A stretch of 64,000 bases of DNA from Yuukianura sp. NJ FZ-2021 (taxonomy: Eukaryota). A model generated the notes under the pieces. The model was not told the origin of the DNA. It saw only the letters and a program-made list of their open reading frames with translations, and did no database searches. Location of the stretch: the NCBI GenBank assembly GCA_046563655.1, contig CM102289.1:992001-1056000 (forward strand), given 5' to 3'. Every line of letters starts with the position of its first letter. Position 1 is the first letter of the stretch. The position numbers and the translations under genes were made by a program. This document shows, piece by piece, positions 23,333 through 60,710 of this stretch.

Positions 23333-26300
23333 ATGGACCCGAAACTTATTTTGTATCTCAGTTTCGTCGTCTTTTCTACTGGAATTGAGTTATCTGGTTG
23401 TTTTTTGCTCGAACACATAAACTTGGATGTGTATTTGGGCGGAAGTTGGGCCACATGCTACAACCACGTGATTCTATACTCCAATTACACCAATATCTAC
23501 AGTTCTCATGCACTAACATTGGATCGGCATGGGAAAATGGCGATCCCAAGACGTTTTGAAAATAGCTCCTGCGCCGTAGTGACAAAGCTGGGCAATGTGA
23601 CTGTAACCAGAAGTCCGCTATTCTGTCCCAGAGACAACCTGCACTATATGACAAACAAGGTGGACTGCATTGGTGTTACTGCCATTTTCCCATTGACAAT
23701 ACGCCAAGAAGGTGAATTGTATGTCTACTTGGGACGGTACTGGTTTCCAGTATCGTTTTATAAAAGTGACGGTTCAGAGGATCAGCATGGGAAGCACACT
23801 AGGTTATTAGAGGGATACAATTTAGAACCAATTCTGTTGCAATCAATCACAGACTCCTGCCGATTTGAGTCCATCATGACCGCCCCGACGAACGAATGGA
23901 TAAAATGGAACAACAAAGTCGCATATAACAAATACTTTAATCTGTTTGTCGTGAGAGTGGTGTACAAAGAATGTAACAGATCTTCAGTCGGCGGACAATT
24001 TGAAATATCAGTTGGAGTTCCCGGTTTGAGCATCCCGAAGTTTTTGGTTCTTAATTCGCAGCGTCTGCCGCCGGTCATTGAATTTGATTTGATCAAGCAC
24101 AAAGTTCTGAAAACCTTGCCGATATTTTTATTTTCCCCGTACTTAGACCCAATTTCGAGGAGTATTTATCCTGCAATTAGTCAGTTTGTTTTGGCACGTT
24201 ATAATCAAAGTGGCTATCCTGACGCAGGTAATAATTGTGTTACTTATTTGCAGTGTTGCTGGATATCCACTTTTTTGACATTTGGTACACGGCTGGATAT
24301 CCAGTGGAAGAAATGGATGAATCCAAACTGGCGGAGCTTTGCCCGCGGGTTAATTAATCTTTTTTATCCTTTGAATTAATGAAATACAAAAGCTTAAAGA
24401 ATTCAAAATACCGTACAAAAAACGAACGAAATATCTTTTTTGTATGAGTTTGAAATAAATAATTAATTTTAATGTTCGAAAGAAACACTTTTTGCTGAAG
24501 TTTGATAACATGTTATCAACTTACAGCATCGTCTGCCGATATAAAAATGTAGCAATGGCACTGGACTTTTCTCCGGATCCAAAGAAAATGTAGCCGTAGG
24601 AAGTCGAATTAAACCAAAAATCCAAATAAAGGCGTTTTTGAAGCGCATAATTAACAGAAAAATAACGTAAAAGAAGGAAAATGTGCAGCGGATACAGTTA
24701 AAAGTTAGAAATTGTGCAAAATAAAAATTAAATACCCGAAGTGTGGAATTGTGCAACTTCGCAGAACGAAAAAGAAACGAAAGTTGTGATTTTGCCATCG
24801 AAATATGGTCAACTTTGGTGGCACTTTTAGGTTAGAAGGTGGTGTCCCGACATTTCAATTTTTTTTACACTGACTCTACAACTCATGCCAATGACTATGC
24901 TGGATCTCCAGGATGTCGGGACACCGCCTTCATTTTCATTTCCTTGCTCGAATTTGGGCCCAAAATCCGGAACCAACCTTTGATTTTTTTTTTAATTTCG
25001 CGCTAAATTCTTAATTCCTTCCATCCACTAAAAGTTTCATCCATTTCGGGTGAGTTTCTTCCAGTGGATATCCAGTGGAAGTGGCAATTAAGCCACTGGA
25101 CGTTTAACCGTCAAGCAACACGGCTTGTTTGGTTCAGAACCATAGTTCGGCACTCTCGTGATTTCATCTCTGCGATCCCGAGATCCCCTATCTCCGATCT
25201 GGGATCGGAGATCGGGGTGGATGAGTTTTTGGATCATTTCATTTTTCCAAAATTCGACTTATCACCTAACCTTAAGTCCAAATTATGCTCGATTTTCATA
25301 GAAAAGGTTTGTCGTAGAATTATAGTTGGGGCAATCAAAATAGACCCAACTTTTTGGTTTGAGAAAAATACATCACAAACTCACACCTGTGCGAAGTTTG
25401 CACCCACTCCGCTAGTCTCAACTCAGAACTGAAGCATGAAATATTCAGAACAATAGGAAAACAGGTTTGATTTTATTTTTGAAAAATTACTCAACGTCGT
25501 TTTCGGACTCTTCCGAAGTGTCGGAATCCTCATCCGATTCGCCCAAAGTAATTGATTGATTTAATCAGTGGCATTTTACCAATTCCATCCCTTTCCCAGT
25601 AGATTTTTTCTTCTTTCCTGCAATGTTCTATTGCTTTCGTCCAGTCGTCAGCAGTAATTCTATCACATGCTTCTAGGAACAACATTTTCAAATCAGTACT
25701 TTTGTCTTGCTTTAGGTTATGCTTTGCCACATACACTTTTACGTTGGCCCAAATAAGCTCTATTGGGTTGAATACACAATGGTATGGAGGTAAGCGTAAA
25801 ACTTTGTGACCAAATTGTTCAGTAATTTCGTCAATCCAGTACCTAATTTTTGTCGGTTTGTGCGCTAAAATAAGCATGTACAACTGTTTTTTGGTAGCAT
25901 TTACTGGAAATTCGATGGCTTGCTCTGTCAACCATTGGATCATTTTCGGTTTTACCGTGTTTGAATTTGGAATGTTATCAACTCTGGAAAAGAAACAAAT
26001 TGTTAGAGCAAAAATTGGTTATTGATTTTTTGTAACTTATTACCGGCGGCTATGATAACGAGCGTTGTCTAGAACAATAACACTTGGTTTTGTCAATAAT
26101 TTGAGGAATTTTTCGATGTACCAATTTTCAAAATACTCAGCATCCATGTCCTGGTGATAATCCGATTTTCCAGTGTTGGACCAAAAAATATCCACCGCAC
26201 CATTCACAAATTGTGGTAAATTACCTTTTAACTCAACTGATTTCAAAAGTGTATTTACGCTTCGATCCTTCCATTTGGGCACAAACATAAGTGGTGAGTT

Positions 26301-28283
26301 CTCGTCTCCATTCTTCTGTAGATTCTTCAGGTATTTGTGGAGGTTCTGGATATACTTATGCTCGGGTATACTGATGTTAGGAGATTTCAGTTTCTTGTTA
26401 GGTTGGCTCACTGGTGTTAAAACACTCATTTCGTGTCAAATGAATTCAGTTAACTAATTGTTAGTTAAATTCCCTAACTGAAGTCTACAAACTACTTAAT
26501 CGAAGTGATCATATGTCACAACTTTATAAATAACCAAAGTGGTAAACAAAAGTTTTTCCCGCCTAAAATTCAAACCAACAAAAGTAAACAACAACTAGCT
26601 GGGTGAACGGGGGTGGAGAGAGCGATGTATTTCTCTCAAACCAAAAAGTTGGGTCTATTTTGATTGCCCCAACTATAGTTATTTCATAAGGAATCGCAAT
26701 AATATTCTTTACAAAAATTCATTTTATGGTTGTTCTACGACAAACTATTCCAAGGAAACATTTCGTAGTATAAATTCTGCTTTAAAGAAAAAGTATTTCC
26801 TTGTTTATCCACATTGCATCCGATGAGGTTTTCAACATTGTTCTTATACATTCAGCAAAACATATTGTATCATATTTTTTTCAGATATACTTACTGTTCA
26901 AAATGTCATGCAATCATACAGTGCATGGAGTGGTGAGTGGACAGTACCGTTTAAGCGCATTCATGCATACGGGGTTACATGCTACCGAGAAGGCACTTTG
27001 CTAGGAGTTGCAGACTATATTCGACCATTTGCGGTATCCTCGTGGATCAATATATTTGGAGCAATAACATTCACGTGTATCTTTTTTGCTGTATGTCCAC
27101 AGTACAGGCTCGTCTCTCGCCAAATCCCGGTATTCATGTACTCAACATTATTAGAAGTAGGCTTCTCATTGGCCCATGTTCCTGGAATGCCTGGAAAAGT
27201 ACTTAATCTTTTTACCGCAATATTTCTACTGGTGGCACTGGTGCTTACGAATGGATACAAGGGAGTTGTAACTACATCCCTTGCGCTCCCATTTGCAAAA
27301 GAAGAATTGGATTCCGTAGAAATGGCGGTTGAGCGGAACTATGGACTTCTCGACAGACATGGTCCGAGCTATAAAATGCACAAATTTTGTTGCAATCATA
27401 CTGACGGCCTGGACATGATCCTCGTTCCAGACGAACGTGCACGCACAAATGGGGGAGAAACTTGCGCAGAATACATTGCCTCCATGTCACAAATTTACTG
27501 GATGGAAACATTGAATGCGTTTGGCTTCATAAGAAACGAACGGGAATATCCCGCTTCGTCAAATGTAGAAATTGCACAAATATTGATGGATCAGATGAAA
27601 AACAACGGCAAAGCTGGACTAATGGCTTACACCCTACTCAACCGTATACGGATACCGCCCTGTGGAGTGTCTTTTGACGAAGCTTTAAGGGAATGCAATA
27701 AAGAAATTGGCATTGTACACGATTCAATGGATCCGGCAGAGGCCAAAAATCACAGGGACTTTGTGGCTTATTCGAAAAAAATATGACAGAGGCCACTTAC
27801 CATTTCCTGGACAAAACGATGTTTCTCAGTGATCTAATGGTTGGGTGTTACTTTGATGTTAATTTCTTTGGCTATGATTTTACAGAAGGTTTAAGGCGGT
27901 TAGCTGAGTCTGGCACCGTTGTGAGTCGTTATGCTGCTTACCTTTCCTTGCGAATCACTAAGGAAAAGAAAATGGCGTTTAAAAGTGCAGGACGAAGCCC
28001 AGATGAGCCGCAGAAGTTGGCTTTGGGTTCCAGAATGGGCTTGATGTTTGTTTTTCTGCTCCTTGGTTCCGTATTGTCTCTCGTCTCTGCAACGGTGGAA
28101 GCTGTTTTGATTCCCAACAATGTTGTTATTAGAAATCTCTTGTTGACTACGAGCAACAAGTTTAAATCAAGTGTAACAAATTTTAAAACGCTGAGCTTTA
28201 AAAAAAAGTCGCAAGTGAAATTCAAATTCAGGAAAAAGCAAAATGTTATCCTTATACATGTTAATCAGCAACCACGAGAGTAG
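23333..28283 (+). CDS. Divergent ionotropic receptor-like protein, type A copy 1; exons 23333-24227, 26885-28283; 1-nt frameshift in the A-run at 27775-27781
   Basis: Signal peptide, pre-M1 IRPFAVSSW, pore-like MYSTLLEVG, M3-like LVLTNGYKGVVTTSLALP, S2 end LRRLAESG and a final TM helix. This is the iGluR/IR topology. Confidence 0.75.
24251..25123. mobile_element. hAT-type non-autonomous element in the A1 intron
   Basis: Termini CAGTGTTGCTGGAT / GTCAAGCAACACGG, TGGATATCCA subterminal palindromes, and TSD CTTATTTG / CTTGTTTG. A related copy lies at 54869-55262. Confidence 0.7.
25323..26675 (-). mobile_element. Internally deleted IS630-Tc1-mariner DNA transposon, DD82E (Sailor-like), with an intron in the transposase
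   Basis: About 52-bp TIRs (TAGTTGGGGCAATCAAAATAGACCCAACTTTTTGGTTTGAGA) with TA TSD. The transposase reads DYHQDMD..VIVLDNARYHS...LRLPPYHCVFNPIELIWA. Removing the GT-AG intron 26043-25984 leaves 82 residues between D and E. Confidence 0.9.
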
Positions 28284-28364
28284 AGAGCAGCTATAACTAC
28301 TTAACGGATTCTAGTTTTAGGAACTACCTACCAAAATATATAAATATGTTAGAAATGTTTACCG

Positions 28365-28668: not shown

Positions 28669-31096
28669 ATGGAGCTAAATTTTGAAATCGTTCTTCTTCT
28701 ATATTTCCATCAATTTGTTGTTGTCAATTTAGATCTGACTCCTGAATCAATTGAACTGACAAATCTGAATCTTCTTGTAGATCAGTTTCCAAATAGTGAC
28801 AATTTGTTAGTACTACCAGACTACAGACACCCAGAAATCACTCACTCGTTTAAAGTACCTGTTAAATTGTACTATGTAAACACTGAACTTAGTGTTCATT
28901 GCGATTCATCCACGGAAAGTGCGCTGTTTTATTTCTTAAATATGCATTTGGGCCAATTAGACACACGGGCAAATAAGCTCACATATTTTACAGTATTTCT
29001 CCTCTTTCCCACGCTTTGGTTTGATACAATGGCGACTCATAGAACAGTAAATCCAAACATTTGTTTCAAAACAGTCAAGCATTTGTCTCTTTTCAACTTT
29101 AAATTAAATGTTATAATTCAAAGAATAGATTTTAAGCCGATGTCGCCTGATTTTACTGATTCCGATTTTGTTGATTTCGGGTTTAACCTACCGGCAAATC
29201 CCGTGCTTTCCTTCCTCGTTGAAATGTTGAAGTTGAATGGAACTGATCGCAGCACAACAACCATTGACACGGTTTTATTCGAACACAACGATCGTTCTGT
29301 TGAAACAAATTTCACCAACACACCATTTGCAATACCTCTGATGCAAATGATAGAGCTGGTACGGAAACAAGCGGAACAGACTTATTTTCTGCATGTCGCA
29401 CAAAATTATGTAAAAATTGAAGGAATTAAGGGAGCTTTAAATCCATTTAAGGCATTACAAATTGGACGAAACTTGTCACTTGTGGACTATTTCCGACTAC
29501 TGGTGCATGAAAACGTTGAAGTTTTTGTTCCTTCGGACGTTGCAGAAAGCTTAGTAACTTCTGGACCATATCCGGATATGCTCTTGAAGTATGACATTTT
29601 TCAAGACAGAATTAATTTCGAAATAGACAACTTCACAAATGGTAGGTTTGTGGTAGTAATGGGAACGGATAAGGTCAATTTTTTAACATGTGATGGTACA
29701 AGTGAAGTAGTAACGTTTGAATTTTATACTGTACCATATGACAAATATTGTTGGTTTAGTGCAATTATCGGATGTTGTTTAGTTGCCTTTACTTGTACTG
29801 TATTTTACGTCAAATTTCGCATTAGTACGACGGTAAAAAATTTTCTCCTTCACTGGATGAACTTTTTGCTTGTGACATCTCTCACTTTACTAGAAGTTTA
29901 TCAAAAACTTCCGCAACAAAATGGGAAAAACACAAAGTTGGTGATAGGTATGTGGGCTCTTATGTTGGTTGTTTTGACAAGTGGGTACAAAGGTGTCGTA
30001 GTTTCATTTCTAGTATCTCGGCTACCAATTAGCCAAACATACTTTACAGCTAAACAGTTGCAAGATTTTGTTATACTTCAAGATTCTGTAACATATCATC
30101 GCTATTTCATAGATTTTCAGATACTATTTAACTACTCTACCTTATACATCAACATTTCAGACCTTGAAACCCAAATTGTTAGTGACTGTGTCCAAATTCC
30201 ACATGAATCTTCTCCATTCGTTCAATATGAAGCAGTAGACAACTTGGCACTTCAACAAATGGTTCATCTAAGTAAACAAAACCGAGCAACGCGCAGAACT
30301 GTATCTGAGGTGTATATAATGACAAACTTCGATAGTTTAACTTCAGTACTTTTTTGCGACAGTTATGAGATAGCCACAAAAGGAGATACAACTTCAGATA
30401 AAATAGAAGTGAATGGGGTTGTGGTACATTCAGCTCTACCAAGTAGGTTTATAGTTGCACATATTCCTACATTTGTTGAAAATTTCCTCTACGAATCTGA
30501 TATCAAATTCGTGGTTACAAAATTAGCCCAAATTCTTTCTCCTTGTACAAAAATGGCCTTAATGGGTCTAGAGACTAACTTGGATTTGTTTCTAGTCAAC
30601 TATGAAAATATGCAAATCTCAATAACTGAAGATCAAATAGGACATGTTCCCAATACGCTTAATTTTCGGAAAGGAAATGAGACAATTGCTGAAATGCTGC
30701 GTGGCTACAGCATTGATAAGGAATATGTGTATACAAAAATTCAAAAACTTTTGGCGGGAGGGATTTTTCAGCTTTGGGAAAAATGGCAACCAGTGCGTAA
30801 ATCCAACAGCTCGGGATAAGATTATGAAACAGAATTTGAAAACTAAGAGGCTGTTGGCTCTGCCTTCAAAATTAAGTTTAAGTGGAAATATTATTACGTC
30901 TTTCTATTTACTTTTTGCGGGAGTGTGTCTTTGTGTTGTAATTTTTCTTTATGAGGTAAAATATTTGGTTTACGATTGTAAGAAAAAATTTGTCAAGCTA
31001 TGGTACCGAACATCTTATTTCCGTCGAAAATGGACCACTACAATGCTGACTATTTCACCGACGGCCGGCAGACAGACAGACTATGTCCATGCATAA
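28669..31096 (+). CDS. Divergent IR-like protein, type B copy 1 (intronless); 1-nt frameshift near 30800
   Basis: NFLTCDG..FEFY.VPYDKYCW (pre-M1), LTLLEV, WALMLVVLTSGYKGVVVSFL (M3-like), KLLAGGIFQLW and a last TM helix. An extra A relative to paralogs (CGTAAATCC vs CGTAATCC) causes the shift. Confidence 0.75.
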
Positions 31097-37202: not shown

Positions 37203-37234
<32 letters not shown>

Positions 37235-39475: not shown

Positions 39476-42400
39476 TGTTGAATAGTCCAGTAAACTACCC
39501 GCCTACCGTCTATTTCCTGTCAGTATCCCTTAACTGGCCGGCTCTACTAATGACTGTAACTGGATTCTGGACATTTGATGTATGATTAATGAGAGCTTAT
39601 TTATTTCCAATTAAACCAATTCTTAAAAGTTACAGTTCTCTCTTCCACTTCTTATCAAGGACTCTATCTTATGACAACTCTTATAGGAATAGCGCCTAGT
39701 CAAAAAACATACAAGTTAAAATTATACACACAAAACAAGCCTTAGGCTAGACGCTTCCATATACTTAAAACTACCCGGGGAACAGAAAGATTCCCTCGTT
39801 ATCAGTCGCAGTGTTCCCCACCCCAAACCGGGTACTCTAATGTCTTGTCGCTTATACGACATTCTCCCACTTTCCGAGGACTGATAGTACCGAGGAAATC
39901 CTTCTACTCCAAAATTAAAATAACCAAAATGAAAGAAAACTTAAATACTAACTTAACACTAGTCATGCAATCAAAACTTAAACCTAAATTAAAGAAATTA
40001 AACAATGAAAGAAAACTTGAACATAAAAAGAACTTAAGCAAATAAATTATGCCAGAGACTGTACGGTTAGTTGAATGTGAAACGATCAGGCTTCTTTAGA
40101 CGACGACCACATCTTGATTGTTTGATTTCCTCTGCTGCTGTAACTTGGACAACTGGCTCGGGATCAACGTCGACATCGTCTTCAACTTCCTTCTCATTCC
40201 TCCCGGTGTCCGCACGCCTCACTGGATTAGGTACCTTCGGAATCTCATCAGATTTGACTTCCGTGGGAATCAGACGTTGTATTGGTCGGAGTAGAGTCCC
40301 AGTCTTCGTCAGTAACTTTGCCACGCGAATCTCTCCGTCCTTCCCCGGAATCAGCTCCAGAATTTTTGCCATAGGCCAGAAAATTCGCTTTTGGTTCTCG
40401 ACTTCCACAAAAACTATTTCTCCCACAACGAACTTGCGATACTTCACTTGTTTACCCCGTTGTACCAAAAGGCCGAGGTATTCCGAACGGAAACGATCTC
40501 GCAGTTCCCGAAAGAGTTGCTCGTTGTGTTTCTTCTTCTGCTTGAGGTCTGACATGGGAACTAGACTCTCTTCTGGCACCACACACTTTGGCAGGTTGTG
40601 AACGAACATTGCGGGGGTCAAGGATACAAAATCGTCCTGATCTTCAGTGATGTATGTGAGCGGCCTATGATTAACTGCAGACTCAACTTCACACAATGCA
40701 GTTTCCAACTGGACATAGGTCAACTTGCCGAATCCCAGCATTCTTCGCAACAGATTCTTCACACTACCGATGAGCCGCTCCCACCAGCCTCCCCACCACG
40801 GTGCCGAAGGTGGATTGAAAATCCACTTAATGCGATGTTGCTCAGTTTCCTTCTCCACTTTAGCCCAATTGATGGTTCCAAACAGATTCTCAGCACCTAC
40901 AAAATTTGAACCATTGTCAGTGTACACAGTACGTGGTCTTTGTTTACGTTTGCTAAATCTGACAAAGGCCAACAGAAAGTCTTCAGTTGAGAGTGACTCA
41001 GTCAATTCCAAATGAATACATCGAAAAACTGCACACGTGAATAAGACGATGTAAACTTTGCACTTGTTTCTTAGTGTTAGAGGCCCTGCCAAGTCAATTC
41101 CCGTCACTTCAAAGGCAGAGGCATCTTGAACTCTTGGTTCAGGAAGTGTTATCGGCTTGACTGCAGTTTTCTTTCCGTCAAACCGACGGCACTTAACACA
41201 CTTTTTCAAAACTTTCACTATGGCTTGTCTACCACGAATGATCCAATACTTGTCACGAATTGTGCCCATCATCAGCTGAGCTCCTCCATGAGCATTGTCC
41301 AAATGCACTCGTTCAATGATGGAATCCACAAAGTGATGATCATGTGGTAGAAGAAGTGGTGCACGGAAACAGTCTGTGTCCTTACGTAGAGTAACCTTGG
41401 TAATCACTCGTAGAAAACCGTCTTCATCTAAGTGGACTCTTAGCCCTGCAATTATGTCCGTATGCTTTGGAAACACTTCACTTTGGACGATCTTGATCAA
41501 TTTGAGCTCTGCCTTTTCCAGCTCATCAGTAGTAGGGTACAGACTCTTCTCAGATGATCTCTTTAGCAACTTGTCCACAAATCTAAAAACAAACGAACAG
41601 ACACGGAGATTAGAATGGTAATTACTTCTTCGTACGTACCACGGAGCCGTGGTTTTGCACAAGGACACGAGAGACGAGATGCCTTTTCTTCTTTCTTGAT
41701 TAACTGCTTCTTCGTCTACTTCAATTTGTTCATTAGGCCACTTTGAACAATCGAGTCTGAGCCATGATGGACCCTCCCACCATCTCGACTCGAGGTACTT
41801 GATAGGCATGATGCCCCTTGATGGCAAGTCTGCCGGGTTTTGAGTTCCGGGAATGTGGTGCCAAGTACTGACTTCTGTCGTTGAACATATCTCCTTTACC
41901 CTATTCCCAACAAAAGTCCCCCAATCGTCGCTCCTTCGGATCCACGAAAGCGCAGTGGTAGAATCCGTCCAGAAATGAGTAGCGACGTCACTTAAATTCA
42001 AAGCACTTTTCACTGTCGTAGCCAGTCGTGCGGAAATGGCACAGGAAAGTAATTCCAGACGTGGGATCGTAGGATTTTTGAGTGGAGCCACCCTTGCCCT
42101 AGATTGAACAAGATACACATTAACTTTGGTTGCAGTCTCTACTCGTAAAAATGCCACTGTAGCGTAAGCTTTCTTTGACGCGTCACCAAAAACATGAAGT
42201 TGGTATCTCCCAACGTTATTTCGCATGCTACGACTGATGTCTCTTGGTATTTGGATTTTGTCCATCACTTCTGACAGTTCACTTGACCAATTAAGAAACT
42301 GTTGTTTCAGATCGTCGGGCACCTCTTCATCCCACTGTTTGGTACAATTCCAGGCTTCTTGCAAGATCAGCTTTGGTACAATGAGTACCGGACTTAGAAA

Positions 42401-45400
42401 GCCAAGGGGATCAAAGACCTTCTGTAACGTAGATAAAACAACACGTTTAGTAACTTTCTGTGGAATTTCAGGTGAAATAGGGACACAAAACAGAGTATCA
42501 AGCCTTTTGTCCCAATTCAACCCTAAAACATTGGACACAGTTTCACCATCATATGACCCACTCCGTTCCCACTGTCGTAGCTCCATCTTGGCAGTTGACA
42601 TGACTTCAGTGGACACATCCCGGACCCTAACCAGTTCACTTTCACTTTCCACTGTAAGCACAAGATTGTCAACATACAACGAGTTTCCAATTAGTCCGAC
42701 GATTGAAGGATCAACATTTCGATTCTGATTCAAATGATGTTGAATGACTGCTCCCAACAGGAAGGGACTGCAGTTCATTCCGAATACCACTCGGTTATGT
42801 TGGTACACTTTGATTTTCTTCAGTGTTGAGTCTTCCCACCATAGGAACTGTAGAAATGAGCGGTCAGACTGGTTTACTTCAATCATTAAAAAAGCCTTCC
42901 TTATGTCAGCAACCACCCCGATTTTACCAAACCTGAAACGCAACAAAATGGACGGGATTAGCTCGATAAGGTTAGGGCCTTTTTCTAAACAGTCGTTGAG
43001 AGATGGGCTCCTGCCAACTTTACAGGAGGCGTCAAAGACAGGACGCACAGGAGTCGTAACACTGGCTTTGAATACTGGCCGATGAGGAAGGAAATGACAG
43101 GCAGCACTTTCACTGTCACTTTTCACTGTGGAAATTATTCCTTCAGCCTCCCACTCTCTAAAGATTTTATCATAGTCAGCAAATCTTCCGAGACTGACTA
43201 ATCTCTTCGTGGTGTTTTCAAGTCTCTTCTCTGCCACAGAACGATTGGACGGAAGTAATTGAGTTCCGTTGACCCACGGGAGAGAAACAGAATAACGACC
43301 CTCTTGATCTTGTGTCACAGTGTTTTGAAAATGTTCAATTGCCTGCTTCTCTTTTTCTTCTGTGGTTTTCTTTTCAATTGGATCTTGAATCCCTAAGGTA
43401 TCCAATGTCCACAACTGAGTCACACTTGTACTTGTAATCGTCATTGATAGAACAGTCATGGCCAATGTGTCACTGTTCTTAGCCATTGGACCAAACACTG
43501 TCCATCCAAATTTAGTTTCTGTGGCAGTCAACCCGTTATGTAGCCTCTGGATCTTCCCTGTCAAAATACGTCCCATGGTATCAGCGCCTAGTAGAACTTC
43601 TACTTCCATGGAATTGTTTGGATCCACATCACTTATGGTGATTCCCCGTTTCTTCAACTGATGAATCCAAGGGCCGTCTGGAATCCTCGGAACTCTGCCA
43701 CAGATGTTGTCTTGGTCTAGAAGTGACATTGAACTAACAAAATTACCACCAACATTGCCAATTTTCACTTCATAAACCGAATGACGGTTACCCACAACCT
43801 CTTTACCACCAAACAGCATGTGGTTCATTGTAACCGTTTCCTTTGCCTCTAGGCCCAAGTCCAATGCCGTCTTCTTTAAGATGTACGATTTTTGAGAGCC
43901 GCAGTCCATCAACATACGCACTGCCTTCTTACAATGAGTCACTGGGTTCTCTAACTGCACAATCAACGTACGCAGAAGTACTTCACTTGTGCAGTTTAAA
44001 CTAGAAAGCACCGTCTTTTGTTCAGTGGGCACTGACTGCTTTACAACCACATCGGGGCACAAAAGAACTGGATGTTTTCTGCCACAAATCACGCATTTTG
44101 CTTGACTACGGCACTTAGATGCTTGATGTCCAATTTTCAAGCAGCAGAAACAGGCACGCTTCTTCATCACTGCTTCCTTCCTCTGTTCCAAGGTCATCTT
44201 TTGTGCTTTGAAGCAATTCAGAGACTCGTGTTGCTTGTCACAAAACAAACAATTTCTTTTCTCTCGAGATCCACTAGCTCCACTGAACAAACCCGCTGCT
44301 GTAGGCACGTCATCTTCCTTGGGCTCACGGTGTGAAGCTTTCTTCTTATCATTCTTTTCAGCGATGAGACCAAATCCCGATCGAGCTAGTTTCCGCTGCT
44401 CTTCGTTCTCGATCTCAACTTTCAGAAAGTTCATCAAAAAATTGAGCTCTGACATCGGTGGTGTTTCTCCGCTTCCATCTTTTCCAAAATTGGGGCTCCG
44501 CTGCCATGCCAGTAACACCTCTTCAGGCAGACTGGACTCCACCATTGGGAAAAGGAACTCCACGATCTGATCCACACTGACTCCTAGTGACTCTAAAGAA
44601 CGTAGCGAGGCTTCCAACTTGTCAACTAGAGTAGCCAGTGGCGTTTTCTCTTTAGAGCGGGTGTCAAGTATTAATTTGATAAGTTCACGGACGTAGACCT
44701 GCTTCAGCAACTTATCTTTTCCAAACCTCTCCTTCAGTGCTGAAACTGCTTTTGGGTAATTTTCCGCCGATTGGGGATACCTCTTCACTACTTCTTCCGC
44801 CTTGGAACCGGAAACAGTTGATTGGAGAAGGTATGAAAACTTATCCGAGTCGTGAAGTTCCTCGTCTTCGTGAATTTTCTTGTACTGTGACCACCAGCCC
44901 AACCATTCGGTCAACTCTCCAGAGAACTTCTTAAGCTCAATTTTTGGTAGCTTCACTCTACGACGATACGTTGTTGAAGATTCGCTTTTGGATGGACTTT
45001 GTGTTAAAGCACTCCTCTTCCAGTGTTTCTGCAACTTCGCTTCAACTTTCACCTTTGTGAGTGTAGCCGTCTTCAGGAATTCACGACATTCACGACGATC
45101 TTGACTAAGTGCTCCGCTGTCAGTTTCAGACATGTCCAGCAGGAATTCCTTTATTTGTTCGTCTAGATCCGCTAAATTCTTCATTGACAATTCCAGCATC
45201 TGAAGAGAAGCAGTGACCTCTTCCTCATTGAAAGGGTCCTTAACAATCTCTTCCTCTAATGACTTCAGCAATTCAGTGACATCGTCTCGTTCTGCTCCTC
45301 TTGCCCGCTTCGCACGATCCATTGTTTGTATGCAACAAAATTAACCAAACAATACAAGATTAGCAGAGAAATCAACCGTTTACCAAGAACGATCGTCACC

Positions 45401-51761: not shown

Positions 51762-52990
51762 CAAATTTATGCTATTTAGGCTTGTTATAACCAAACTTGT
51801 TTTCGCCCCAAATATTGTGGCGCCAAAGAAAAACTAGCGCATTTATTTTGAACTTGCCGGTGATGTTTACACATCACGAAATTAACTTGAAGCACTACGT
51901 CATCGTTGGGTCAAACGAAACAGCTAGTCGGTTCTTGAGATGGAGCAAGAGGATTTTTAAGATGTGTTTATCACTTTTAGCCTAAACGAGCTGCAGGATT
52001 TGTAATTGATAGAGCAAAAGGCCAAATCAAATAAAATTGTTTGCTTGATTATTTTATTAATTTTTTGTGACGAATTCGTTTCTTGCGGTGCAGAATTTAC
52101 TTTTGTGTCAAATTTGAATTCAGTTTTCATGTGATCAACAATGTATTCCGTTGAGGAGCAAAAGGTGAAGGTCTCGTCAGCAGTCTAAACTTAATCTAGA
52201 TCCCACTGGTGAATTAATATTTAATAAAGCACGAAAGTTAACTTTTTTTTTAAAATGTTTTTTTTACAACATTTTCATCTTCCCTTTTTTACAGCAGTAA
52301 AATGACACCTCGCATTACTAACGCAGTCTCACGAGTGGTTTTTTCAGTTTTTTTACGAAAGTATATAGTGGGGAGGATTGATTGTTTATAATTTTTCTGT
52401 GACAACGTTTTTCTTCGGTTGGAGTACAAAGTAAATTCATCCATTGTAACCATCCAGTTTAAATAATCATCGGACCCATAGTCCAGATCTGTTTTAGGAT
52501 TGTAAAATGAAGTTATACAAGTTTTATTACGCTTATAATTACTAAGAATTCATTGAAAATCAATTCCAAATAGTCGATTTTGTGCCAAATAGCGAACACT
52601 GGTTACAAGTAACACACGTCGTTACCTCAACCAAGTTTTGCACGAATTTAATTCCTTGGATACCACTACACTACATACTTTTGCAAAAGACAATTAAAAA
52701 ACGGCTCGTGAGACTAGCTTAGACAGCACGTGTATCGTTTTGTTTAGTTACCTTGGGCAAAACATGCTATGTGGCTGTTCCACGACGCGACAGTGCTAAA
52801 TTGAGTGGTCTAGACGAAGAAAGGGCTATGTCACGTTGATTAAAAAACAATTTTACTTCAATTATTGTTATTCATATATTTTTACATCTACTTCTAACGC
52901 AAAAATTGCTTGTTTGTAAAATTATTTGCTAAATATTTTCCTTAGAAACGAGACAGGCTCCATCTGTTGGACATCAAAAAGACAAAAAAA

Positions 52991-55900
52991 ATGGATCCAA
53001 AAATGATTTTGTTTGTCACTCCCATTGTCTTTTGTGCTGGAATTCAGTTATCCAGTTGTTTTTTGCTTGAACACATTAACTTGGATATGTATTTGGGCGG
53101 AAGTTGGGCCGCATGCTACAACCATGTGATCTTGTACTCCAATTACTCCAACATCTACAGTTCTCATGCATTAACATTGGATAGGCATGGGAAAATGGCC
53201 GTTCCAAGGCGTTTTGAAAATAGCTCTTGCGCCAAAGTAGAAAAGACTGGCAACGCCACTGTAATCAGCAGTCCGCCATTCTGTCCAAGAGACAACCTCC
53301 ACTATATGACGAGAAAAGTGGACTGCATAGGTGTTACTGCTGTTTTCCCATTGACACAACATCAAGAAAATGAAATGCTTATCTACTTGAGTCGGTACTG
53401 GCTGCCAATATCGTTTTACAAGGTTGATAGCCCAAAGCATCAACCGTATAACAAGCGCATTGATAAGTTAGTAGATGGATACGGTATACAGCCTGTTCTG
53501 TTGCAAACAATCACAGACTCATGCCGATTCGAGTACATCATGAACGCCCCGACAAATAAATTTATAAAATGGAAAAACAAGGTAATGTTTAGGAAATATT
53601 TTAATTGGTTCCTTGTGAGAGTGGTCTACAAAGAATGCAAAAGATTTATCGTCGGTGGACAATTTGAAATATCCGTTGGGGTTCCCGGGCTTTGCATCAG
53701 AAAGTTCTTGGTTCTCAATTCGCAGTATTTGCCGCCATTTGTTAAATTTGATTCGATAAAACAAAAAGTTCTGAAAACGTTGCCGATCGGTTTGGTGGGC
53801 GACCAAAATGAACTACTACTGCCCAGGAATATTTACTCCGCAATTAGTCAGTTTCTTTTGGCTCCTTATAATCAAAGTGATGATGCTGACGCAGGTAACT
53901 AGTTTTGAACAAAATAAACGGTTGTAAACCGGTGTACGTAAGTAGCGAAGATAGCGCCCCCCCCCCCGGGAGTGGGGATGGGTTTCCCCCACTTTCCCGC
54001 CACCCTTTCCCGAGTGAGTAGAAATGGGTTCCCCGGGCATCCCCGGGGGAGTTTAGTTGGGTTTCCCCCCGGGGGGAATGGAGACAGGTTCCCCCTGGGG
54101 AGTGGAGATGGGTTCACCCGGGGGAGTGGGGGTGGGTTCCACCACTTCTTCCAATGGGACAACAGGAGAACGCTAAAATAAAAAAAGTTGACCTTTGACC
54201 CGGAAGGAGGTCACTTGGGGTCATGTGATGTACACAAAAGTTGTTGCACTCGATGAGACGAACAACTTTTGTAGAGGTCATTTTCCGTGTTACCGGGGAT
54301 TAAACCGGTTGACCTTGACCTTTAACCCGGAAGGAGTTGACCCACCGGGATGATATTCAATAGTGAACATCACCGGGTCACTAGGTGTCCACCGGTGAAA
54401 ACAGATCCCGGAAATGGTTAACCGTTTCCGAGATAATTGCCGGAGACGGACGGACGGACGGCCGGACGGCCGGCCAGACAGACAAGGTCGATGTATAAAG
54501 TAGCTTCGCTACTTAATAAAGTCACAAGAGAAATTTTAGCAGTTACTAATTTTATCAGTGTAAAATTTGGAGAAAGTTTCACGTTTGACCAACTTCGACC
54601 TTTTCACCTATGAGCTTGTTTGTAGTCTCTTTAATTTTTACGTTTACTTAGCTCTTGGCATTCGATGACTTCTGATTTTTTCTATTTTACTTTCTGACGA
54701 AATTGGGGGTTTGGTGATAGGTTAGGCAATAACTTTAGTTTTCAAAAAATCCTAACTCAGACTATTCTTCTACTTTCTTCCTCTATTCGAGCTTGTATCG
54801 TGAATGTTAAATTACAAAGCAATCTCTTTTTGTAGTAGTGAACTCCATACTCCTACAACTGAGAGAATCAGTGGTGCTGGATGATTAAACGCCCAGTGGC
54901 TTAATTGCCACGTCTACTGGATATCCACTGGAAGAAATGTGTCACAAATGGACGAAACTAATATTGGGTGAAAAAATAAACATTTAGCGCTAAAATAAAG
55001 AAAAATCAAATTTAAAATTACAAAATAATATCAAAAGGCTTGTCTTTCTTGATAAAATTAAATATTTATTTAAGACTCATTTAAAAACGACATCTACTTA
55101 CTTTGTTTGCTGTAATTTCATTGTTTTTAGTTTTTTGTATTCAATTAAAACGAACCTCGCTGGCAAAGCTCTGCCATTTTGGATTAATCCAGTTCGTCCA
55201 TTTCTTCCACTGGATATCCAGCCGTGGATGAAATGTCAAAAAATGGATATCAAGCCACACTGCCGAAAATACAAGAGGTTACATTCGTTTTGAAAATATT
55301 AGACAAAACAACGCAGCCTTATTGCCACACCGAGGCTGCTATGCTAAGGGGGTCTGTTTTTTTTTCTTTTTAACTAATAAAATCTTCGTTTAACGCATGC
55401 ACTGAACTTTTGCACTTTGTTCTTCAATAATCAACGAAAATTGTTGTGACATAATTTTTGCAGATAAAGTTGGTGTTGCCCTTGCAGCACATTCACACAA
55501 CTCATGGGGTGGTGAGTGGAAAGTTCCGCTTAAGGCGCTCCATGCATACGGAATTACATGCTACCGAGAAGGCACATTATTGGAAGTTGTAGATTATATT
55601 CGGCCCTTTGCCGTATCCTCGTGGATGAACTTGTGTGGAACAATAACATTCGCGTGTATCTTTTTTGCTGTATGTCCACAGTACAAGGCCGTATCACGCC
55701 AAATGCCGGTATTCATGTACTCAACATTATTAGAGGTCGGCTTCTCATTGAACTATGTTCCTGGAATGCCTGGAAAAGCACTTAACCTTTTTACCACAAT
55801 ATTTCTGATGGTGGCCCTGGTGCTTACGAATGGATACAAGGGAGTTGTAACTACATCCCTCGCACTCCCATTTGCAGAAGAAGAATTGGATAGCTTCGAA

Positions 55901-56824
55901 ATGGCAGTTGATCGGAACTATGGACTTCTCGACACAGGGTCTCCGGCGACTGAGATGTACAAATTTTGTTGCAATCAAACAGACGGCTTGGGCGGCATGA
56001 TCCTCCTCCCAGACGAAGGTGCGCGCACAATTGGGGGAGAAACTTGTGCGGAGTACGTTACCGCGAAGTCACAAATTGAATGGATGGAGACCATGAATGC
56101 ATTTCGCCAACCAGGAAACCAATGGGAATATTATACATCGTCAGCTATAGAACTTAAACAAAGGTCAATGGATCAGATGAAAAACAATGGCAAAGCTGGA
56201 CTCGCGGCTTACAACCTACTCAAACGCATACGAATTATCCCATGTGGAGTGTCGCCTACCGAAGCCATAATGCAATGCAATAAAGAAATTGCCATTCAAT
56301 ACGATACAATGGATCCGGCAGAGGCCAAACGTCACATGGACTTTGTAGCAGAAATTTACGCTAAACAAAATGCGGCACAGGCACCCTACTATTTCAAAGA
56401 CAAAATGATGTTTCTCAGCGATCTAATGTTTGTGACTTCTCTTGACGTTAGTTTTGAGGGCTACGACTTTACAAAGGGTTTAAGGCGGTTAGCAGAGTCT
56501 GGAACAATTGTGAGTCGTTATGCAACTTTCCTTGCCTTGAAGATCAAAAAGGAAAAGGAAATGGCATTTAAACGTGCGGAACGAAGACCAGACGGACCGC
56601 AGAAGTTGGCTTTGAGTTCCAGAATGGGACTGATTTTTGTTTTCCTGGTCCTTGGTTCCACATTGTCTCTGGTCTCTGTAACGGTGGAAGCTGTTTTGAT
56701 TCCCAACTACTCGTTTGTTAAAATTTACTTGCCGACTATGAGAAATCAGTTTAAAGCAAAATTCAAATTCAGAAACAAGCAAAATCTTATGTTCATACGT
56801 GTTAAACAGAAACGAGTAGAGTAG
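52991..56824 (+). CDS. IR-like type A copy 3 (intact); exons 52991-53894, 55464-56824
   Basis: The phase-1 GT-AG splice gives a continuous frame (DA-DKVGVAL...YREGTLLEVVDYIRPF), with the same IR-like motifs as A1. Confidence 0.8.
53908..54520 (-). mobile_element. DINE-1/HINE-like (Helentron-associated) non-autonomous element
   Basis: Subterminal inverted repeats AAGTAGCGAAG (53940) / CTTCGCTACTT (54504), an adjacent partial IR forming the AAGTAGCTTCGCTACTT hairpin, a GTCY microsatellite on the minus strand, and a terminal stem-loop CGGTT-GTA-AACCG. The ends are T-rich. Confidence 0.75.
54869..55262. mobile_element. hAT-type MITE of the same family as 24251-25123, in opposite orientation
   Basis: Reverse-complement match to both ends of the A1-intron element (CAGTGGCTTAATTGCCAC; TTCTTCCACTGGATATCCAGCCGTG). 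No clear TSD. Confidence 0.7.
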
Positions 56825-57069
56825 AGAACAGCAACTAATACGAACGAATTTGGAAATGCCCACCAAAATAATATTAAATATTTCACCAAAAACTAAAAAA
56901 TATTTAACAATTTCCGAGATAATTTCCGCCAACGGACAGCCAGGCAGACAGAAAAGGTGGATGCATAAAGTAGCTTTTTCTTCTTAATTTTCTTGAAACA
57001 CGAACTGCATAGTAAAGGAAGTTAATTTTCATGGATCTTCAGGTAGCGAGGGGCGGTGACATAAATTTA

Positions 57070-57617
57070 CACGCTGGTTAAGGACAGCAGTATTGATGTT
57101 TTTAAAAATTACTATAAGAAAACTAGTGAAGTACACAAGTACCCTACGTCATCATCTTGTAATAACATTAAAATGCAGGTGCCTAAACAAATAACTCAAA
57201 AAAATAGCTTAATTACGTACCAATCTAGATCAGTTCAACTTTGGAACAATTCGAATGAAGAAGTAGTAAAGTCAAACAACTTAATGAATTTTAAAAGAAC
57301 ACTGAAAAAAGTTTTACTAAAAGAGCAAAATGAAAAATATGATAAGTAATTAAGGTAATTAATTAGTGTAGGTTAGAATAGATGTATGTATTAATTAGCA
57401 AATTAGTTAAGTAAGTAAAATTATATTACGATCACACAGACTCTTAGTGTAGGTTAGACTAGGTATTAATTAAGAGATAGTTAAGATAGATTACTTGTAA
57501 TACCAACGATCTTTTTTGTGTAAGACCACTTAAGTGGGTACAATTAAGAACAAAAATTTAATATTGAAAAGCATACATTGAATAAATCAAAAATATGAAC
57601 TCAAAAAAAAAAAAAAA
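57070..57617 (+). mobile_element. 5'-truncated non-LTR retrotransposon (LINE) 3' end with poly(A)
   Basis: Translates to SVQLWNNSNEEVVKSNNLMNFKRTLKKVLL, typical of a CR1/L2-group ORF2 C-terminus. AATAAA at 57581 and a poly(A) tail at 57603-57617. It interrupts the conserved B upstream module, with AAATTT-like flanks. Confidence 0.75.
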
Positions 57618-57794
57618 TTTCGAAAAATGAAACACAAGGAACGGAAATGTATTTCCTTCAAAGCAAAGCACAACATTATGACTTAAATATTAGACGGATG
57701 GGTTAAATTCACTTGTAAGTGGGTGGACCACGACAGTACCAAATTAGAATTTGCCTTCAATGTGTGATACTTTGTAATAAATAAGAAACTAGCA

Positions 57795-58026
57795 ATGGAG
57801 CTAAATTTTGAAGTCGTTTTTCTTTTATGTTTCCTTCAATTTGTTGTTGTCAATTTAGAGTTGACTCCTGAATTAATTCAAGTGACAAATTTGAATCTCC
57901 TTGTAGATCAGTTTCCAAATAGTGACAATATGTTAGTACTACCAGGCTACAGACATCCAGAAATCACTCAAGGATTTAAAGCCCCAGTTAAACTTTACTA
58001 TGTAAACACAAAAAATAGTGTTCATT
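57795..58026 (+). pseudogene. Truncated IR-like type B copy 4 (first about 77 codons)
   Basis: MELNFEVVFLL...KNSVH aligns to the B N-terminus, then switches abruptly into the HINE remnant and the B5 upstream module. Confidence 0.88.
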
Positions 58027-58331
58027 CGGCCGACGGCCGGCAGACAGACATACAACGCGGATGCATAAAGTAGTTTTCGCTTTTTTTAGTAAAACACGAA
58101 CTGCATATTAAGGGAAATTTTAGTTCGTAAGGGGCGGCCACATTATGGCGGCCTAATTTAAAAATAAAATAAGCACGAAGAGCGGAAATGTACTTCCTTC
58201 AAAACAGATTTTGCACAACATTATGATTTAAATATTAAGCAAAGCAGGATAAATTGACTGGTACGTGGGTGTTCCGCCACAGTACTTAACTTTTGCCCGT
58301 AATTTTTGGTAGGTTGCACTAAAAGGAAGCA

Positions 58332-60710
58332 ATGGAGCTAAATTTAGAATTTTTTTTTCTTCTATATTTCCATCAATTTGTTGTAGTCAATTTAGAATTG
58401 ACTCGTGAATCATTTCAAGTGACTAATCTGCATCTCCTTGTGAATCAGTTTCAAAATAGTGACAATTTATTAGTGCTACCAGGCTACAGACACCCTGAAA
58501 TCACTAAAGGATTTAAGGCTCCAGTTAAACTGTATTACGTAACAACAAAGCATAGTGTCCATTGCGATACATCCATGGAAACTGTATTGTTTGATTTCCT
58601 AAATATGCACTTGGGCCAATTAGAAAACAGAGCAAACAAACTCACATATTTTATAGTATTTATCCTTTTCCCCACACTTTGGTTTGATAAAATCGTGAGA
58701 CAACGTACAGTACAGCCAATCATCTGTTTCACAGCAGTAAAGCATTACTCTCATTTAATGTATAAATTAAATGTTGTACTTCATACTATAGATTTTAAAC
58801 TGATATCGCCTTATTTTGCTGTTGATTTCGAGTTTCGTTTTGGTGTAGCAGCCAATCCCACCGTTTCCTTTCTTGTTGTACCGTTGAACGGTACTGGCCG
58901 TACCGTAACAGCTATTGAAACGATACTTTTCGAGCACGACTACCGTTCTGTTGAAACAAATTTCACGAAAACGCCATTTTCCATGCCTGTAATGTCAATG
59001 GTCAAACAAGTACGGAAACAAGCGGAACAGACTTATTATCTCCACTACGGAAATTATGTAAAACTAGAATTAATTAAAGAGGCTTTAAATCCATTCAAGG
59101 CACAAATTGGAAAAAACTTGACACTCGTAGACTATTTCCGACTCCTTGTGCACGAAAACGTTGAACTTTTTGTTCCTTCGGACATTGCAGAAATTTTAAA
59201 AAGTACTACATCAAATCCAGATATGCTTTTGAAGCATGACATTTTCCAAGATAGAATTAATTTTCAAATATACGACGATTTTACAAACGGGAGGTTTTTG
59301 GTAGTAATGGGATCGCATGTTCTAAATTTCCTAACATGTGATGGTACAAATGGAGTAGTTACGTTTGAATTTTATGCCGCACCATATGACAAGTATTGTT
59401 GGTTTAGTGCAATTATCGGATGTTGTTTAGTTGCTTTGACTTGTACTGCATTCTACGTCAAATATTCCATTAGTATGACGGTAAAAAAAATTGTGCTCTA
59501 CTGGATGAACGTTTTGTTTGTGACTTCGCTCACTTTAGTTGACGTTTTTCAAAAACTTCCGCAACAACGAAATGGAAAAGACAATACCAAGTTGATGATG
59601 TGTTTGTGGGCTGTTATGTTTGTTGTTTTGACAAATGCGTATAAAGGCGTTGTAGTTTCATTTCTAACGTCGCAGCTACCCATTAGTCAAACCTACTTTA
59701 CAACTAAACAGTTGCAAGATTTTGTTATCCTTCAAGATTCGAATACATATCGACGCTATTTTAAAGACTATAAGAAAATATTCGACTACTCTACAGTTTA
59801 CATCAACTCTTCAGACCTTGAAACCCAAATTGTTTGTGATTGTGTCCCTTTCCCACGTGACTCTTCTCCACTCGTGCACTTTGAAGCTGTTGAAAATTTG
59901 GCACTTCAACAACTAGTCCACCTAAGTAAAACAAACCGTGCAACTTGCCGAACTACGTCTGACGTGCAAATAAAGACAAACTACGATAATTTGTATTCAG
60001 TGCTGTATTGTGACACTTATGCGATCGCGGCCAAGGCAGATACAACTTCAGACAAAATAGAAGTGAATGGTATTGTTGTACATTCTGTTTTACCAAACAA
60101 CTTCATAGCTGTTCATGTTGTTACATTTGTTGAAAATTCTTACTACGAATCTGATATTAAATTTGTGGTTACAAAATTAGCACAAATGCTTTCCCCTTGT
60201 ACAAAAATGGCTTTAATGGGTCTAGAGACGAACTTGGATCTGTTTTTAGCCAACTATGAAAATATGCAAAACTCAAAATCCAAAGACCAAATAGTACATG
60301 TTCCCAGTACTCTTAAGTTTAGAAAAGGAAATGAGACCATTGCTGAAATGTGGACAGGCTACAGCATTGATAAGGAATATGTGTATACAAAAATTCAAAA
60401 ACTTTTGGCGGGAGGGATTTTTCAGGTTTGGGATAAATGGCAACCAGTGCGTAATCCAACAGCTCGGGATAAGATTATGAAAGAGAATGTAAAAACAAAG
60501 AGGCTGTTGGCTCTGCCTTCAAAACTAAATTTAAGTGGAAATATTATTACATCCTTCTATTTACTTTTTGCTGGAGTGTTTCTTTGCGTTGTAATCTTTC
60601 TTTATGAGGTAAAATATTTTATATATACATATATTATTATACATGTGTACGAATGTAAGAGAGAATTTCCCAAGCGTTCTACTCCAGTTGTGCTTTTGGA
60701 GGTGCTGTAA
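58332..60710 (+). CDS. Divergent IR-like protein, type B copy 5 (intact, 792 aa)
   Basis: Single ORF paralogous to B2. Confidence 0.8.
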   Translation: MELNLEFFFLLYFHQFVVVNLELTRESFQVTNLHLLVNQFQNSDNLLVLPGYRHPEITKGFKAPVKLYYVTTKHSVHCDTSMETVLFDFLNMHLGQLENRANKLTYFIVFILFPTLWFDKIVRQRTVQPIICFTAVKHYSHLMYKLNVVLHTIDFKLISPYFAVDFEFRFGVAANPTVSFLVVPLNGTGRTVTAIETILFEHDYRSVETNFTKTPFSMPVMSMVKQVRKQAEQTYYLHYGNYVKLELIKEALNPFKAQIGKNLTLVDYFRLLVHENVELFVPSDIAEILKSTTSNPDMLLKHDIFQDRINFQIYDDFTNGRFLVVMGSHVLNFLTCDGTNGVVTFEFYAAPYDKYCWFSAIIGCCLVALTCTAFYVKYSISMTVKKIVLYWMNVLFVTSLTLVDVFQKLPQQRNGKDNTKLMMCLWAVMFVVLTNAYKGVVVSFLTSQLPISQTYFTTKQLQDFVILQDSNTYRRYFKDYKKIFDYSTVYINSSDLETQIVCDCVPFPRDSSPLVHFEAVENLALQQLVHLSKTNRATCRTTSDVQIKTNYDNLYSVLYCDTYAIAAKADTTSDKIEVNGIVVHSVLPNNFIAVHVVTFVENSYYESDIKFVVTKLAQMLSPCTKMALMGLETNLDLFLANYENMQNSKSKDQIVHVPSTLKFRKGNETIAEMWTGYSIDKEYVYTKIQKLLAGGIFQVWDKWQPVRNPTARDKIMKENVKTKRLLALPSKLNLSGNIITSFYLLFAGVFLCVVIFLYEVKYFIYTYIIIHVYECKREFPKRSTPVVLLEVL

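Follow-up and report, generated by a model that had tools for sequence, protein, structure and literature searches.

A probably triplicated block of divergent IR-like genes in a tandem array of Yuukianura sp.

Layout and gene structure of the array

The subject of this analysis is an array of channel-like genes of two types, A and B, on contig CM102289.1 of Yuukianura sp. NJ FZ-2021 (assembly GCA_046563655.1). The window, that is, the whole stretch of 64,000 nucleotides between positions 992,001 and 1,056,000 of this contig, has a G+C content of about 37% and contains zero N, and all coordinates are counted from its first letter. Between 23333 and 60710, three groups of genes lie on the plus strand (+) in the order A1-B1-B2, A2-B3 and A3-B4-B5. 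The original prediction, made from the sequence alone, had read them as highly divergent genes like those of ionotropic receptors (IRs), in which A and B may form a linked and co-expressed receptor pair. Its layout was confirmed by tblastn searches of A3 exon 1, A3 exon 2 and B5 against the window combined with a stop-to-stop open reading frame (ORF) list and self-blastn. The distance from each A to the next B, given there as 0.4-1 kb, was measured as 385, 900 and 970 bp between the A stop codon and the B ATG. Matches to a hidden Markov model (HMM) of the family, which is described below, are confined to 26.8-60.7 kb, and no further family copies beyond the mapped ones were found in the 64-kb window.

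Three of the genes, A3, B2 and B5, are intact as had been predicted, with open frames of 754, 804 and 792 amino acids, respectively. A3 consists of an intact exon 1 (52991-53894, +) and an intact exon 2 (55464-56824, +), and splicing at G|GTAA...CAG|AT would remove a single phase-1 intron, keep the frame and give the 754-aa product. In all three A copies, exon 1 ends at G|GTAA and exon 2 begins after a pyrimidine run followed by AG, while the introns of A1, A2 and A3 are 2657, 815 and 1569 nt in length, respectively. DNA similarity between the A copies in self-blastn ends about 4 nt past the donor and returns 14-70 nt ahead of the acceptor. By comparison, B2 (31361-33775, +; beta subtype; family HMM E 9.4e-111) and B5 (58332-60710, +; beta subtype) are intronless single open frames that start at the first ATG following a stop. 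Each intact gene encodes a hydrophobic, signal-peptide-like N-terminus, a variable N-terminal region and a core with the order S1-M1-pore loop-M3-S2-M4, where S1 and S2 denote the two parts of the ligand-binding domain (LBD) and M1, M3 and M4 the helices of the transmembrane domain (TMD). The IR transmembrane-scaffold motifs quoted in the original prediction were found in both types, as RPFAVSSW and GYKGVVTTSLALP in A3 and as APYDKYCW and AYKGVVVSFLTSQLP in B5, with the final transmembrane segment present in both. The N-terminal region of B5 ahead of S1 is about 250 aa in length, and S2, between M3 and M4, is long in both genes, at roughly 290 (B5) and 250 aa (A3). Nine Cys residues are located in exon 1 of A3 and five in its S2, while B5 has three in residues 1-340 and five in S2.

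The other copies carry lesions, which were called by gap-by-gap comparison of the copies. Exon 1 of A1 (23333-24227, +) encodes a signal peptide and a Cys-rich N-terminal region, shows 70% identity to A3 exon 1 in tblastn and has its G|GT donor after 24227. Exon 2 of A1 (26885-28283, +) covers pre-M1, M1, the pore loop, M3, S2 and M4, and is matched by the family HMM in two ORF pieces (E 2.7e-20 and 4.2e-8); its frame is shifted by −1 at about 27778, within an A8 run, which may be an assembly error. The intronless B1 (28669-31096, +; alpha subtype; family HMM E 1.9e-79) contains a +1 insertion (T) at about 30798, before M4 and outside any homopolymer. These single-base lesions of A1 and B1 are additional to those listed in the original prediction, which had both partners of the middle cassette broken. 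The latter was borne out by the copies themselves. A2 exon 1 is split by a retrotransposon into a 5' part (38870-39475, +) and a 3' part (45920-46219, +) that extends to the conserved donor, and A2 exon 2 (47035-48507, +; family HMM E 3.6e-19) has a −5 nt frameshift at 47198-47207. Its neighbor B3 (49408-51761, +) is a pseudogene and an alpha/beta mosaic, with a +2 lesion (49560), a +8 tandem duplication (50043) and a +1 lesion (about 50577). Finally, B4 (57615-58046, +; ATG at 57795; family HMM E 7e-7) was ruled out as a full gene because only its first 84 codons and about 180 bp of the B 5' flank are left.

The element within A2 exon 1 is a BEL/Pao-type long terminal repeat (LTR) retrotransposon of 6.4 kb in the minus orientation (39476-45919, −). 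It carries one open gag-pol frame of 1757 aa (45340..40067, −) with Pfam matches to Peptidase_A17 (1.3e-44), DUF1759, RVT_1, Integrase_H2C2 and DUF5641. Its LTRs (39476-39861 and 45534-45919) are identical at 385 of 386 positions, and a 5-bp target duplication, GCTGG, is found at 39471-39475 and 45920-45924, together indicating a very recent insertion. Separately, the A1 intron contains an ORF (25530-26018, −) with a sub-threshold match to DDE_3, a Tc1/mariner-type transposase domain (E 1e-4, 22.6 versus 28.6 bits). The A1 and A3 introns also have two inverted repeat pieces in common (24250-24471/55263-55053 and 24979-25121/55010-54871).

Family membership and predicted fold

A word-indexed search with B5 retrieved one protein, P0001 (E 7.5e-4), which shares with B5 the blocks NFLTC.G, PYD...W and TNAYKGVVV as well as the final transmembrane segment. 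The same kind of search returned P0001 alone for a 94-sequence alignment of the family and zero matches for A exon 2. When the B copies and P0001 were combined in a profile and searched exhaustively with HMMER, 396 proteins scored E<=1e-3, of which 67 reached <=1e-10 and 4 reached <=1e-30. Clustered at 50% identity, the family comprises 396 or more representatives. Most of them are 650-870 aa in length and match in two stretches, one from M1 to M3 and one from the end of S2 to M4. The conserved columns of the family are F.TC.G, Y..P.....W, L.E, W......L.N.YKG, one Cys in S2, L..SGI...W..W and a Glu in M4. Both A3 and B5 retain most of these columns. B5 has Gln in place of the family Pro that follows the M3 box, and A3 departs at several others, among them the Gly of F.TC.G (Arg in A3) and both Trp of W..W (Tyr and Phe in A3).

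A and B had been described as barely alignable, and BLASTP of A exon 2 against B5 indeed covered only 41 residues around M3 (E 0.002). Profile-profile comparison of A with B extended over 116 columns (probability 86.7%, E 4.4e-6), and the family HMM, which was built without A sequences, matched exon 2 of A3 from pre-M1 to M4 at E 1.5e-30 (2.5e-41 with an HMM of the A clade). In a set of 150 sequences, the nearest relatives of A exon 2 are P0060, P0050, P0084 and P0078 (E 1e-17 to 1e-22), and they differ from those of B5, which are P0011, P0009 and P0008. A tree of 118 sequences placed A and B in distant clades, each beside proteins of other organisms. These comparisons place A in the same family as B but in a distant clade. 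In the A-like relatives, a single ORF of 750-775 aa continues uninterrupted through the position of the A intron, indicating that the intron was probably gained in this lineage. Exon 1 of A (P0003) has a signal-peptide-like start, and gave neither a Pfam match nor a phmmer match among the 150 relatives; its score against the A-clade HMM was non-significant (−0.9, E 0.03 for 2 targets).

The Pfam model Lig_chan (PF00060) scored 18.6 bits for B5, 16.8 bits for B2 (E 0.006) and 15.1 bits for B1 (E 0.021) against a gathering cut-off of 30.8, and no match was obtained in the A pieces searched (both exons of A1 and A3, and exon 2 of A2). Among the best-scoring 71 relatives, 13 matched Lig_chan at E<=0.01 and none reached the cut-off, the best score being 28.1 bits, while no other family recurred. 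We read these sub-threshold scores as extreme divergence because both profile-level and fold-level comparisons led to ionotropic glutamate receptors (iGluRs). With phmmer, B5 had zero matches to PDB sequences at E<=10. The 94-member profile, with B5 as its first row, matched 240 distinct PDB sequences at E<=10, and the best 60 of the 240 were all iGluRs, with GluD1 at the top (E 1.9e-13) followed by GluA1-4 (about 1e-11). The alignment covers the strand before M1, M1, the pore loop and M3, with a weak second stretch over the end of S2 and M4 that includes the conserved Glu, and it places the family sequence N-A-Y-K-G-i-v-t-s-d-L-t against S-S-Y-T-A-N-L-A-A-F-L-T of iGluRs. A profile of 19 A-clade sequences gave 100 PDB matches at E<=1, and the best 60 of the 100 were again all iGluRs (top E 0.0024).

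The fold was predicted for B5. AlphaFold with the 94-row alignment gave a predicted local distance difference test score (pLDDT) of 67.6 and a predicted template modelling score (pTM) of 0.60, with pLDDT values >90 mostly in residues 320-480 and 600-780 and low confidence at residues 122-218 and 495-591, the latter being part of S2; a model from a 5-row alignment (pLDDT 28) was discarded. Foldseek found at least 305 PDB matches to the B5 model at E<=1e-3, and all of the matches listed were LBD-TMD chains of AMPA receptors. Alignment of the model to AMPA and NMDA subunits by VIA-align gave a Z score of 11.3 over 320-340 of about 400 residues (model residues 250-769), and the TMD alone was aligned in full (139/139) with a root-mean-square deviation of 3.9 Å. 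In a Foldseek-independent fold search of 48,161 representatives, iGluRs again ranked at the top, with Z scores of 10.4 for an AMPA TMD, 10.3 for an LBD-TMD, 9.8 for NMDA, 9.4 for GluD2 and 8.7 for plant GLR3.4, and the isolated LBD of GLR3.4 aligned at Z 7.9 over 188 of 252 residues. TRP and K+ channels matched only the M1-P-M3 module (residues 341-450), and the N-terminal 250 residues of B5 were barely covered by any of these matches. The three structural comparisons concur in an iGluR-type LBD plus TMD architecture for B5, which is modelled as a bilobed LBD of S1 and S2 joined to a TMD of three helices and a pore loop. Of the checks named in the original prediction, the Lig_chan search thus brought no protein to the cut-off, while structure prediction gave an iGluR-like model for B5. 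Taken together, the profile match to GluD1, the B5 model and the match of the family HMM to A exon 2 support the predicted identity of A and B as very divergent IR-like ligand-gated channel subunits of the iGluR superfamily.

The organism is known for 7 of 30 family members looked up, all of them Collembola (five from Allacma fusca, one from Folsomia candida and one from Orchesella dallaii), where they are labelled only as 'unnamed protein product', 'hypothetical protein' or 'uncharacterized protein'. The remaining 23 belong to assemblies of metagenomes or read archives. In the ESM Atlas, the nearest clusters to B5 and A exon 2 are hypothetical proteins of Arthropoda (0.97), followed by clusters automatically named 'Ionotropic receptor' or 'Ionotropic glutamate receptor C-terminal domain-containing protein' (0.91-0.94), which we treat as leads only. 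Judged by its relatives, the window would come from a springtail or a near relative.

Divergent IRs, according to the available portions of Croset et al. 2010 (PMC2924276), are mostly single-exon genes in tandem arrays that evolve by birth and death, with few introns that lie toward the 5' end. Those of insects, such as the IR94 and IR52 arrays of Drosophila described in the same portions, resemble the present genes in the iGluR-derived order S1-M1-pore-M3-S2-M4, in forming same-strand arrays of mostly single-exon genes, in birth-and-death evolution with pseudogenes, and in a divergence so high that domain models barely detect the sequences. By contrast, a region of about 250 residues precedes S1 in the present genes, and the present array alternates two anciently diverged clades instead of being a run of close paralogues. 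A non-insect hexapod with intronless, very divergent IRs found by weak matches (Ir101-Ir2525) is the dipluran Campodea augens. The portions available of its genome report (PMC6938034) give 2,431 IRs, mostly intronless, with 37% pseudogenes that mostly have single lesions, and introns gained independently in several lineages at about one-third along the gene, behind a divergent first exon. The present array follows this pattern exactly, although Campodea is a dipluran whereas the named relatives here are Collembola, and although the A intron is in phase 1 at about 40% into the coding region whereas the introns quoted for Campodea are in phase 2 or phase 0.

Vertebrate AMPA, NMDA and delta iGluRs are matched by the family profile from pre-M1 through M1 and the pore loop to M3 and again in M4, and their LBD and TMD can be superposed with the B5 model. 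Hallmarks in common are the P...W that precedes M1, the Tyr in the 'SYTANLAAF' box of M3 and the M4 Glu. By contrast, identity is 10-15%, the M3 box reads N-A/G-Y-K-G-V-V instead of S-Y-T-A-N-L-A, and the present genes are without a recognisable full amino-terminal domain. Relative to the AMPA receptors aligned to the B5 model, the S2 of the present genes is about 90-130 residues longer and carries five Cys. The genomic signature of divergent IRs is present at the locus, with intronless B genes, a single intron in A, a same-strand array, pseudogenes and a ratio of nonsynonymous to synonymous divergence (dN/dS) of 0.26-0.63 across the copies. The locus would add new members to a known kind of gene, the divergent IRs.

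Duplication and turnover of the block

Self-blastn separated the B copies into two subtypes, alpha (86.7% DNA identity between B1 and B3) and beta (85.6% between B2 and B5), with 79-82% in cross-pairs, and the B4 stump is marginally nearest B3 (82.3% versus 79-80%). Outside the genes, blocks 1 and 3 are colinear at about 77% identity both upstream (22872-23333 with 52057-52991) and downstream (33802-34104 with 61037-61348), indicating that the ancestral unit was A-Balpha-Bbeta with its flanks and was copied twice. Synonymous divergence (dS) between blocks is 0.34-0.36 for A exon 2, 0.34 for B2-B5 and 0.41 for B1-B3, and such similar values for A and B copies fit co-duplication. Colinear flanks and alike dS thus agree with the prediction that A and B had been co-duplicated as a cassette. 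The range of dN/dS given above shows that the copies are under coding constraint of the relaxed kind seen in chemoreceptor families. Amino-acid identity between copies is 67-72% for A and 82% for B, so that A evolves faster.

B3 is alpha-like in mid-gene, with 93-94% identity to B1, and shows 95-97% identity to B5 at its 3' end. This mosaic suggests that the blocks have undergone gene conversion or unequal exchange, which may explain the single B in block 2. A conserved 5' flank of some 250-280 bp accompanies each B copy, including those that come after another B. A scan of the intergenic regions for poly(A) and TATA motifs gave little information; the hexamer AATAAA occurs at 28651, 31347 and 57776, 14-19 nt 5' of the ATG of B1, B2 and B4 and within this conserved flank, where it could be a poly(A) signal of the upstream gene or a chance occurrence in AT-rich DNA.

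Upstream of A2, at 37856-38562, two regions from upstream of A1 reappear in changed order (22426-22730 at 89% and 21957-22135 at 75% identity). Between these pieces lies an inverted 3' fragment of a B gene from the M4 region (38201-38356, −; tblastn E 1e-8; family HMM E 6.3e-5), which is 86% identical to 30888-30998 in blastn. The reordered pieces and the inverted fragment suggest a rearranged block boundary near A2. Also between blocks 1 and 2, a strongly hydrophobic open frame of 267 aa (35058-35861, +) without a Pfam match may be one exon of a gene for a multi-pass membrane protein.

We propose that the tandem array came from a single block of about 11-13 kb that was segmentally duplicated twice. 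This block would have contained one gene each of A, B-alpha and B-beta, which belong to one large, very divergent IR-like family within the iGluR superfamily. In this family, A and B represent clades of ancient separation, A having presumably acquired its phase-1 intron while B is intronless. The array would since have been in birth-and-death turnover. Nine original slots are expected under this scheme, of which three are intact (A3, B2 and B5), one carries a single homopolymer frameshift (A1) and three are clear pseudogenes (A2, B1 and B3), while the other two would correspond to the B4 stump and to one slot lost or merged in the B3 alpha/beta mosaic. The products of A3, B2 and B5 may act as variable 'tuning' chemoreceptor subunits that form tetramers with conserved co-receptor subunits encoded elsewhere, like other IRs. 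On this reading, A and B would be adjacent through descent from the duplicated block and not through functional pairing.

The array is flanked by genes of other kinds. Pfam identified VOMI (8382-9098), BTB (12090-12761), Metallophos (15598-17010, −) and ML (19455-19859, −) domains upstream, and a multi-exon carboxylesterase gene (61672-63871) downstream; we take the Metallophos gene to be sphingomyelinase-like. ORFs of 471 aa (5921-7336) and 194 aa (9270-9854) had no Pfam match. Self-comparison of the window also found short local direct repeats of 76-82% identity at 2067-2700, 9029-9333 and 18637-19149.

A possible dedicated receptor pair and other readings

Under the pair reading of the original prediction, A and B would be the two components of one heteromeric receptor, kept adjacent and co-expressed, maybe in one transcript, and the pair would be the unit that was duplicated. 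In keeping with this, all copies are on the same strand with a B 385-970 bp after each A, the heterotypic block survived two duplications, the sole intact A (A3) lies 1.5 kb upstream of the intact B5, and iGluRs and IRs function as heteromers according to the available portions of PMC9020824 and PMC2924276. However, adjacency is fully explained by duplication of a block with colinear flanks, and the A-B-B periodicity is a result of segmental duplication combined with gene death. Decay is also uncoupled between the putative partners, for block 1 has an intact B2 beside an A1 that is frameshifted as assembled, and all alpha copies that adjoin an A are dead (B1, B3 and B4), while the intact B2 and B5 each follow a B. 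Furthermore, each B has its own conserved 5' flank of 250-280 bp whatever precedes it, and A changes faster than B not only in amino-acid identity but also in dN/dS (0.49-0.63 for A, with 0.34-0.52 for A1-A3, versus 0.28 for B2-B5), unlike a conserved partner or co-receptor.

The pairing was further compared with related loci on 40 metagenome contigs, where ORFs were labelled A-like or B-like by their relative phmmer score. Fifteen loci had A-like ORFs, 23 had B-like ORFs, two had no ORF that could be labelled, and in none of the 40 did an A-like gene occur together with a B-like one; the test is a weak one, as nearly all contigs are from one sample, the contigs are short and the relatives are not orthologues. 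No same-strand family member was found upstream of B-like genes with a flank of at least 1.7 kb (0/5), nor a second member downstream of A-like genes with a flank of at least 1.1 kb (0/4). More than one member was present at five of the 40 loci, and at one of these the two members come from different clades and lie on opposite strands. Another, contig L027:1-6904, has three same-strand members spaced by about 1.2 and 0.6 kb, and its two complete members are sister copies, indicating that homotypic tandem arrays of this family also exist. A and B relatives elsewhere were thus found unlinked, as far as such short contigs allow, and with the adjacency explained by segmental duplication, uncoupled decay and the faster change of A, the results do not support a linked A-B receptor pair. 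A dedicated pair is possible without specific support, and we regard it as unlikely. A further version, in which A and B would complement each other in a heteromeric chemoreceptor that is specific to springtails, functions independently of the canonical co-receptors IR25a and IR8a and has the A-B block as its unit of inheritance, we regard as somewhat less likely still.

A role of these iGluR-like channels outside chemosensation (neuronal, developmental or epithelial), with tandem duplication by happenstance, would accord with evidence that reaches only fold and superfamily, and with an S2 whose length and Cys content are unlike those of the iGluRs aligned to the model. Hundreds of divergent members, intronless genes, tandem arrangement, young pseudogenes and the dN/dS range form instead a chemoreceptor-type signature, as described for divergent IRs in the portions available of PMC2924276 and PMC6938034, whereas synaptic iGluRs are few, intron-rich and highly conserved according to the former, so that a non-chemosensory role appears quite improbable. 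Alternatively, the whole array could be a decaying remnant in which the open frames of A3, B2 and B5 are no longer used, given that five of the eight full or partial cassette copies have disabling lesions and an inverted fragment is present in addition. Against such a remnant, three frames of 754-804 codons have stayed open at a dS of about 0.34 between copies, the dN/dS of B2-B5 and of A1-A3 indicates purifying selection since duplication, and family-wide hallmark residues are retained in A3 and B5. We therefore hold it to be very improbable.

We consider it probable that the array is a triplicated A-Balpha-Bbeta block of divergent IR-like subunits in birth-and-death turnover, with A and B adjacent by descent. 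Several points weigh against this account. No single protein of the window reaches the Lig_chan gathering score, and both the N-terminal 250 residues and the S2 segment 495-591 of B5 are modelled at low confidence. The splicing of A exon 1 to exon 2 is deduced from sequence logic because no relative is matched significantly by exon 1, and gene conversion blurs the dating of the duplications. The 'Ionotropic receptor' cluster names of the ESM Atlas are the only leads for placement within the IR radiation, and chemosensory role, expression and co-receptor dependence are inferred. Finally, a functional pair would likewise be expected to lie on one strand at short spacing and to include an intact A3 close to an intact B5. 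With respect to subunit composition, heteromers of a tuning IR with IR25a, IR8a or IR76b serve as the working model for A3, B2 and B5, with the difference that neither A nor B resembles a conserved co-receptor since both evolve fast. The locus looks like ordinary turnover of a chemoreceptor gene family and not like a special two-part receptor.

For the claim of a two-part receptor, the value of the present analysis is mostly negative. If A and B did form a chemoreceptor that is free of the canonical co-receptors, this family of several hundred IR-like genes would provide Collembola, which are without odorant receptors according to the portions available of PMC6080948, with their main repertoire of receptors for odour and taste. 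More broadly, the only springtail IR count that we found in print is 'at least 15', including orthologues of IR25a and IR8a, for Holacanthella duospinosa in the available portions of PMC5644144. A full-text literature search, with incomplete coverage and of main texts only, found no description of a large springtail IR expansion or of the present family. A large springtail family of IR-like genes, with at least 396 cluster representatives, thus appears to be unannotated. If the family consists of chemoreceptors, the IR repertoires of springtails would be badly under-annotated and may match the order of the dipluran expansion.

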